A stretch of DNA of 46,798 nt from an uncultured Candidatus Altimarinota bacterium (GTDB lineage: Bacteria > Patescibacteriota > Gracilibacteria > CAIRYL01): positions 1-46,798 of the forward strand of contig CAMZKZ010000002.1 of assembly GCA_947311645.1 (NCBI GenBank), given 5' to 3'. Position 1 is the first letter of the stretch, and each line of letters begins with the position of its first letter. Positions 43,794 through 43,955 of this stretch are shown here, one piece after another. Under the pieces are notes generated by a model, which was not told the DNA's origin, did not search any database, and saw only the letters and a list, made by a program, of their open reading frames with translations. The translations under genes and the position numbers were made by a program.

Positions 43794-43847
43794 ATGATGT
43801 ACAATACTTTCTTCTTTTGGTTTTTTCCATATTTCTATACAAAATAG
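43794..43847 (+). CDS. candidate attenuation leader peptide MMYNTFFFWFFPYFYTK (17 aa; 6 Phe, 1 Trp, 3 Tyr)
   Basis: ATG ATG TAC AAT ACT TTC TTC TTT TGG TTT TTT CCA TAT TTC TAT ACA AAA TAG, read directly from the sequence. It lies between rpmE and the DAHP synthase gene and is followed by alternative pairing segments and a strong terminator. Confidence 0.6.
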   Translation: MMYNTFFFWFFPYFYTK

Positions 43848-43885
43848 AGAAGAATTTATTGAACTTATTTTATATTTACAATAGT

Positions 43886-43934
43886 AAACTTCTCTATTCT
43901 ATGTACTGTACATAGAACAGAGAAGTTTTTTTTT
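43886..43934 (+). terminator. attenuator terminator upstream of the DAHP synthase gene
   Basis: The stem 43886-43906 / 43908-43928 is about 20-21 bp with one A-C mismatch. Nine T residues follow it. It ends 22 nt before the ATG at 43956. Confidence 0.75.
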
Positions 43935-43955
43935 ATACTTTTTATCCCTCTCTTT

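Follow-up and report, generated by a model that had tools for sequence, protein, structure and literature searches.

We analysed a stretch of 46,798 nucleotides (nt) of DNA (contig CAMZKZ010000002.1 of GenBank assembly GCA_947311645.1, from an uncultured Candidatus Altimarinota bacterium), referred to below as the window, and in particular the 184-nt gap between rpmE and a gene for 3-deoxy-7-phosphoheptulonate (DAHP) synthase, to which an earlier note on this DNA had drawn attention. The gap very probably holds a functional ribosome-mediated (leader-peptide) transcription attenuator of a stand-alone DAHP synthase gene in a bacterium of the Gracilibacteria/Peregrinibacteria type within the Candidate Phyla Radiation (CPR), and the best explanation of the element is that it senses Phe, Trp and Tyr together. 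Three properties expected of an attenuator are found here: a short 5' leader open reading frame (ORF) enriched in codons for end products of the pathway, an intrinsic terminator between the leader ORF and the structural gene, which is seen in relatives too, and an antiterminator that excludes the terminator and has its 5' strand placed at the stop codon of the leader. Positions of the features are given in Table 1.

Leader ORF and alternative pairings

As the earlier note had read it, the leader peptide has ten aromatic residues among its 17 (6 Phe, 1 Trp, 3 Tyr). By aromatic density the ORF ranks first among the 577 ATG-started ORFs of 8-40 codons in the six frames of the window, and it holds the sole ten-residue stretch with nine aromatics among about 93,500 such stretches in the same frames. 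Since the DNA is AT-rich (about 32% GC in the window), Phe-rich strings are frequent in out-of-frame translations, and 14 ten-residue stretches at about six sites of the window have at least 8 aromatic residues. The aromatic ORF is not due to chance, and on this point the comparison with relatives described below weighs more than rarity within the window.

An unguided repeat search recovered all three pairings, that is, segment 1 with segment 2 (1:2), segment 2 with segment 3 (2:3, the antiterminator) and segment 3 with segment 4 (3:4, the terminator). The short complementarities on which the earlier note had based its proposal are present in the sequence: TTCTTCT (43809-43815) is complementary to AGAAGAA (43848-43854), and between AATAGAGAAG (43843-43852) and CTTCTCTATT (43889-43898) the complementarity is perfect. 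The longer inverted repeat between segments 2 and 3 (43836-43852/43889-43905) is 82% complementary, and segments 2 and 4 are in part direct repeats of each other. What had been described as a terminator hairpin of about 20 bp followed by nine T residues is a hairpin at 43886-43928 with 19 pairs and one A.C mismatch, of which 16 pairs precede the T-run.

Each of these alternative structures folds better than shuffled sequence, with -14.1 kcal/mol (z -2.6) for helix 1:2, -14.6 kcal/mol (z -3.6) for helix 2:3 and -21.6 kcal/mol (z -6.5) for helix 3:4. The whole region folds with -37 kcal/mol (z -5.8), and helices 1:2 and 3:4 coexist in the full-length minimum free energy (MFE) structure. In our own scan the leader terminator is the strongest hairpin-plus-T-run of the whole window. 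A simple terminator scanner reported nothing at this site, the A.C mismatch within the stem being the probable reason. Terminators of the hairpin-plus-T-run type also stand at convergent gene ends, which means that this type of signal is functional in this organism.

Table 1. Features of the leader region and its flanking genes in the window. All lie on the forward strand of the window.
Feature	Position	Strand	Remarks
rpmE (ribosomal protein L31)	43559-43771	+	upstream gene; NCBIfam L31 equivalog, E 4e-27
Leader ORF, 17 codons and TAG	43794-43847	+	nucleotide sequence ATGATGTACAATACTTTCTTCTTTTGGTTTTTTCCATATTTCTATACAAAATAG, encoding MMYNTFFFWFFPYFYTK; read from sequence
Segment 1	43799-43817	+	inside leader ORF; pairs with 43846-43864; from MFE structures and inverted repeat 43799-43815/43848-43864
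Sensor codons FFFWFF (putative)	43809-43826	+	read directly
Sensor codons YFY (putative)	43830-43838	+	read directly
Segment 2	43836-43854	+	spans leader stop; pairs with segment 1 or segment 3 (antiterminator)
Leader stop codon TAG	43845-43847	+	
Segment 3	43886-43905	+	5' arm of terminator hairpin; from folding and inverted repeats
Segment 4	43909-43928	+	3' arm of terminator hairpin; from folding and inverted repeats
Nine-T run	43926-43934	+	U-tract of intrinsic terminator; ends 21 nt 5' of the DAHP synthase ATG
DAHP synthase, class I (AroF/G/H-type), 348 residues	43956-45002	+	putatively regulated gene

Conservation of the element in related loci

Orthologous loci were collected from species-representative genomes, from metagenomes and by exact protein look-up. 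About 19 distinct loci of Gracilibacteria/Peregrinibacteria type have an aromatic ORF, a hairpin and a T-run upstream of the orthologous gene, and DAHP synthase identity across the leader-bearing loci runs from 100% down to 49% (Table 2). The earlier note had named conservation in relatives as a way to check its reading, and both the F/Y/W codon run and the stems are indeed kept upstream of orthologous DAHP synthase genes. In the relatives that were folded, the distance from the end of the hairpin and T-run to the DAHP synthase ATG is 16-88 nt. A T-run preceded by an ORF with at least 6/8 aromatic residues was found in 12 of the 19 scored loci compared to 0.3% of control windows (1865 in all, tiled on both strands of the same loci), a difference that is not a clean probability because the loci are phylogenetically related.

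The F/Y/W codon run is the sole peptide feature conserved across all leader-bearing loci. The peptides have 13-26 residues and vary in sequence, and they carry 7-11 aromatic codons, Trp included. Both the leader peptides and the RNA sequences have diverged far beyond what common descent alone, with no selection, would have left in working order. The neighbouring genes differ as well: in the distant relatives (67-49% identity) prfA is divergent upstream, and a sigma factor gene and ruvX are convergent downstream. The element stays in front of the DAHP synthase gene even where prfA or other genes take the place of rpmE; the loci linked to prfA include L005, L009, L010, L092 and L094.

Table 2. 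Leader peptides of related loci, with segments 2 and 3 for the window and four relatives. Identity refers to DAHP synthase; loci marked distant fall in the range of 67-49%.
Locus	Identity	Upstream gene	Leader peptide	Segment 2	Segment 3	Remarks
Window		rpmE	see Table 1	AGAGAAG	CTTCTCT	
L001	87%	rpmE	MIFNTFFFWLFAYFYQK			
L002	88%	rpmE	MITRNLLFGTFFFSFYYFDR			
L003	78%	rpmE	MIQKKFFFWFFVYFSLNKRRFY			
L086	78%	rpmE	MIYNTFFFWFYSYFYQK			
L004	distant		MQNLGFFFTYWVR			
L005	distant		MQNSTFSFFYFWFRASEQN			
L007	distant		...KYFSYFFFWNNA	TCGGTGG	CCACCGA	leader cut by contig end
L009	distant		MKIFAFDFFYFWFRASEQN			
L010	distant		MQNFSFDFFYFWFRASELV	GGTTTAAAG	CTTTAAACC	
L011	distant		MSHIFLFFWSFYFPTVSRVSA			
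L013	distant		MNIWFFFFGFYYQPALAVV			
L014	distant		MKQFFFYFFGFYFAPQRVRVRVKK	GTGAGAG	CTCTCAC	
L088	distant		MKHLWNTFGYYFFFFFFRKKELCCVF			TTG start
L090	distant		MAKYFFYFFFWNNA	GCGGTGG	CCACCGC	
L091	distant		MKKNFFSYFFFRWTT			
L092	distant		MQQFFSAFFYFWTT			
L094	distant		MQKFFYGFFYFWFNRGLA			
L052	49%		MQMTTYGFFFYSPWARAWA			leader and terminator at 1360-1500, before DAHP synthase and then tyrA-like and pheA-like ORFs

The pairing logic is retained together with the codon run. In relatives, the terminator 5' arm is complementary to a segment located from -22 to +13 nt relative to the first base of the leader stop, and the duplex of segment 2 with the 5' arm beats random segments of the same locus (empirical p <= 0.05) in 11 of 16 loci. 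Between subfamilies the RNA segments are wholly replaced and the pairing relationship is retained (Table 2). For example, segment 3 has an A in L007 where it has a C in L090, and a corresponding change from T to G is present in both segment 2 and segment 4. The automatic definition of the arms failed for L004, L007 and L010. In nine of the ten loci where it worked, the fold of the stalled-ribosome state gave z values from -1.6 to -5.2. The failure in L014 (z +0.6) is attributable to its segment 2, which lies upstream of the folded stretch.

Within the close clade the bases of the helices do not vary, as is to be expected when segment 3 has two partners to pair with, segments 2 and 4. The upper part of the terminator stem varies in sequence and length and stays paired. 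RNAalifold on five relatives kept helix 1:2, with one compensatory pair, and the terminator. The structural support comes mainly from the comparison of diverged subfamilies.

At 47-52% identity most matches, which look like other lineages, lack the element. Some of the matches near this level have aromatic ORFs that we rejected. Those of L020, L028, L041, L046 and L062 (about 50% identity; MWFIYN, MRFVYY, MFWMGWRI etc.) have no T-run and apparently lie inside upstream coding sequence, which in L041, L046 and L062 is the end of a tandem DAHP synthase-like gene. In the upstream regions of L066 and L024, ORFs ending in ...AYYFYFG and ...GFYFGSPAN overlap a TTGGCT...AGCCAA hairpin with no T-run. 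Together with L052, these two may be other aromatic-leader variants outside the CPR group.

Proposed mechanism and competing explanations

The earlier note had likened the arrangement to the classical attenuation geometry of trp, pheA and his, and the pairings, the position of segment 2 at the stop codon and the conservation in relatives all support the comparison. From this arrangement we infer leader translation, ribosome stalling and premature termination as follows. Transcripts would enter the leader, here probably by read-through from rpmE, and a ribosome would translate the 17-codon ORF. With charged Phe-, Trp- and Tyr-tRNAs the ribosome would reach the TAG and cover segment 2, so that 3:4 pairs and RNA polymerase terminates at the U-tract. 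When aromatic aminoacyl-tRNA is scarce, a stall in FFFWFF would melt 1:2 and free segment 2, which could then pair with segment 3, so that no terminator forms and DAHP synthase is transcribed. If the leader is not translated at all, 1:2 and 3:4 would both form and transcription would terminate. Going by footprint sizes, with the A site on the TAG a ribosome would cover up to about 43858-43860, that is, all of segment 2, and a ribosome stalled in FFFWFF would cover up to about 43839 at most and leave the core of segment 2 (43843-43852) free.

Nine loci that are not linked to rpmE have a TTGAC(A/T/C)-16/17-TAnnnT site ending 9-11 nt before the leader ATG. These sites predict transcripts that would start 2-5 nt before the ATG, with a nearly leaderless ORF, which agrees with the lack of Shine-Dalgarno sequences. 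None of the 33 gene starts examined in the window has a clear Shine-Dalgarno sequence, and the absence of one before the leader ATG is therefore not evidence against its translation. Many of the same 33 starts have a TATAAT-like hexamer 7-20 nt upstream, which suggests that leaderless or very short-leader mRNAs may be widespread in the lineage. On the downstream side, the 21 nt between the U-tract and the DAHP synthase ATG leave no room for a separate promoter, so DAHP synthase transcripts must cross the terminator.

Several observations weigh against attenuation as set out here. The YFY codons lie 7-15 nt from the core of segment 2 and overlap the part by which the segment extends 5' of this core (from 43836). 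A ribosome stalled on them would mask segment 2 at least partly, which leaves the FFFWFF block as the only one in clean agreement with the model. The start codon of the leader is within the outer part of helix 1:2. The antiterminator is weaker than the terminator (-14.6 compared to -21.6 kcal/mol), and control must therefore be kinetic. Among the relatives, the element is absent in L008 and L015 and probably in L016 and L087, only two of the 28 consensus pairs within the closest clade have a compensatory change, and the leader of L003 ends at TGA, a stop that is unused by the credible genes examined in the clade. A Pfam search of the 26 larger ORFs found no other aromatic-pathway gene in the 46.8 kb of the window. 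Finally, the window, L001 and L002 have no promoter-like site of the above kind before the leader (best 7/12). The leader ATG is 22 nt past the rpmE stop with no hairpin plus T-run between, and because both a promoter-like site and a terminator are lacking in this interval, the leader is probably co-transcribed with rpmE by read-through. The hairpin would then end the ribosomal protein transcript and also act as the attenuator.

We also considered the genetic code of the lineage, as some Gracilibacteria, a label carried by relatives of this organism, read UGA as Gly. No credible gene examined in the window, L001-L003 or L086 stops at TGA or has an in-frame TGA. The 47 ORFs of at least 120 codons in the window end at TAA (30), TAG (11) or TGA (6). 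Those with TGA at the end are apparently spurious, and most of these overlap a longer ORF. The codon is either strongly avoided or in the course of a change of meaning. An alternative code would not affect the leader of the window, which terminates at TAG.

Apart from attenuation, the hairpin could be a plain terminator of the rpsF-rpsR-rpmE transcript, next to a chance ORF in a T-rich spacer and with DAHP synthase expressed from a promoter of its own, which we regard as very improbable. It is true that no other terminator stands between rpmE and the hairpin, and Phe-rich strings from T-rich frames are common at this GC content, as the stretches counted above illustrate. The terminator lies 115 nt past the rpmE stop, however, compared to about 20-60 nt for the other gene-end terminators of the window, and the ORF remains open and aromatic-rich over the whole range of DAHP synthase identities. 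A possible promoter overlapping the hairpin would consist of TTGAAC at 43860 and TAGTAA 17 nt later. Four close relatives keep this weak -35-like TTGAAC, but in helix 1:2 it pairs with the beginning of the leader ORF, which accounts for its conservation, and its -10 partner is poor (TAGTAA, ACAAAA, ATAAAA). The unit of ORF, hairpin and T-run also precedes DAHP synthase where there is no rpmE, with its own promoter-like site.

The switch could also be real and be read by a protein or an uncharged tRNA (TRAP-like, T-box-like or other), with the ORF being incidental. Translation of the leader is itself deduced from the sequence, and segment 1 (UUCUUCUUU) must be pyrimidine-rich in order to pair with the purine-rich segment 2, which in the close clade is enough to yield Phe codons in one frame. 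A constraint on the RNA alone, however, does not predict an in-frame aromatic run, and the runs of the other subfamilies include TAT/TAC and TGG, always in frame with an ATG and with a stop adjoining segment 2; moreover, the promoter-like sites place the transcript start just before the leader ATG, as if this ATG were used. Rfam at gathering thresholds gave no leader, T-box or riboswitch family at the element. At E <= 10 over 43450-44000 there was again no T-box, just weak hairpin-driven matches to microRNA models and to Phe_leader (RF01859), of which the element is not a member (21 bits compared to a gathering threshold of 55, E 0.49, from the hairpin alone). We therefore consider such a sensor improbable. 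Least probable of all, and hardly credible to us, is that the product of the ORF is a small hydrophobic protein, such as a membrane peptide, which has its own function and whose ORF stands beside a terminator by chance. The peptide is hydrophobic and its frame is kept open in relatives, but what is conserved across subfamilies is its F/Y/W composition and not its sequence or length; the ORF overlaps segments 1 and 2, the position of its stop tracks segment 2, and it is always linked to DAHP synthase.

Read as an attenuator, the element can be compared to known leaders. In Escherichia coli, the thr and ilvGMEDA leaders are cases in which one leader combines the codons of more than one end product made by a common pathway, and pheL is a Phe-rich leader of 15 codons. 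By description, the element resembles the former in combining several end-product codons, here those of Phe, Tyr and Trp for their common first step, and differs from them in pathway and amino acids. With the pheA attenuator (pheL) it shares a Phe-rich leader, the 1:2, 2:3 and 3:4 alternatives and an intrinsic terminator before the gene, whereas pheL has Phe codons only and controls chorismate mutase/prephenate dehydratase. With trpL, which has the classical geometry (PMC11802643), it shares sensor codons in segment 1, a stop beside segment 2 and mutually exclusive 2:3 and 3:4 pairing, whereas trpL has just two Trp codons and controls the terminal Trp branch. As for the target enzyme, E. coli represses its DAHP synthase genes by TyrR and TrpR and uses pheL as a leader that senses Phe-tRNA (PMC11802643), and in Vibrio attenuators have been predicted from structure before aroA(I-alpha)-tyrA operons (PMC1173090).

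The earlier note knew of no described attenuator of a DAHP synthase gene in a reduced-genome lineage. This stands as far as CPR bacteria are concerned, since our literature search found no leader-peptide attenuation described for CPR/Patescibacteria and nothing relevant on shikimate or aromatic biosynthesis in Gracilibacteria/Peregrinibacteria, but for the gene itself there is a precedent in Corynebacterium glutamicum. Its aroF is preceded by a leader peptide with Phe-Tyr-Phe, aroR, predicted in PMC4046766. According to the account in PMC11802643 of Neshat et al. 2014, Phe limitation leads to ribosome stalling and more transcription. Tyr availability is reported to be without effect. Compared by description, aroR-aroF has the same target enzyme, an aromatic-codon leader before it and the same control logic. 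It differs in belonging to an actinobacterium and an operon and in having three aromatic codons and no Trp, whereas in the CPR element 7-11 codons are aromatic, Trp among them, the gene behind it stands alone, and the leader often begins 9-11 nt past a -10-like hexamer.

What is new here is the lineage, a poorly understood one, and the sequence family; the mechanism is known and the target enzyme has a precedent. The gain is one of breadth and not of principle, the mechanism being textbook knowledge and Corynebacterium providing the precedent for the target. A broader proposition, which we consider evenly balanced, is that classical leader-peptide attenuation may have been conserved as the way in which CPR bacteria of the Gracilibacteria/Peregrinibacteria type (genomes of about 1.3 Mb) control a stand-alone DAHP synthase, with the attenuator acting on a nearly leaderless ORF with no Shine-Dalgarno sequence that reads Phe, Tyr and Trp charging jointly. 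If this is true, transcription and translation would be coupled tightly enough for attenuation in these organisms, and the aromatic pathway would be tuned to the cell's own tRNA charging in lineages usually deemed amino acid auxotrophs. CPR bacteria are uncultivated and their gene regulation is almost unstudied, and a conserved attenuator can be read directly from sequence; it would imply the use of intrinsic terminators and initiation without Shine-Dalgarno sequences, probably on near-leaderless transcripts. A DAHP synthase tuned to the charging of Phe-, Tyr- and Trp-tRNA would also argue for the enzyme feeding the synthesis of aromatic amino acids, in organisms commonly taken to rely on hosts for their amino acids. 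A new RNA family, of use in annotating such genomes, could be started from the approximately 19 diverged leaders.

Surroundings of the locus

The local gene order is tRNA-Leu, L25, S6, S18, L31, the leader and DAHP synthase, followed by convergent gpmI, and the rest of the window has housekeeping functions. The assignment of the DAHP synthase is supported by profile scores of 356 bits for NCBIfam NF009395 (cutoff 343) and 293 bits for TIGR00034 aroFGH, and its N-terminus agrees with the consensus of homologues. Its closest relatives are in metagenome-assembled genomes labelled Candidatus Gracilibacteria, Peribacteria or Peregrinibacteria, and more distant leader-bearing relatives (L092 and L094) are on contigs of 1.30 and 1.33 Mb. 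The gene is followed by its own bidirectional terminator at 45022-45065. Like those at 19963-19997 and 5870-5907, this is an intrinsic terminator with a hairpin between an A-run and a T-run, and each of the three lies between convergent genes (DAHP synthase/gpmI, ligA/gap and tig/DEAD-box helicase).

Further observations concern other parts of the window. Directly 3' of topA, a 199-residue ORF at 14951-15550 (+) has Aconitase_C (LeuD-like small subunit) as its sole domain and no adjacent gene for a large subunit. An RNase P RNA at 7293-7652 (-), with 148 bits, overlaps the DEAD-box helicase ORF, listed at 5931-7421 (-), over its first approximately 43 codons. Since the domain of the helicase begins at residue 74, the true start is probably an internal Met. 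The ORFs at 25919-29275 (+), 33967-35361 (+), 11603-12259 (-), 31130-31711 (-) and 31711-32325 (-) have no Pfam family at E <= 1e-5, the longest of them having 1118 residues. In the gap between rpsR and rpmE, a hairpin at 43517-43536 (TTCTTCT-ACTTG-AGAAGAA) is followed by CATTCTTTAAACTTTATACACT up to the rpmE ATG. Its arms are identical in sequence to segments 1 and 2 of the aro leader, and the hairpin together with CATTCTTTAAACTTTATACACT is almost invariant in L001, L002 and L003, apparently at least as conserved as the neighbouring coding sequence. This stretch could be a regulatory leader of L31, a processing site or a promoter region.

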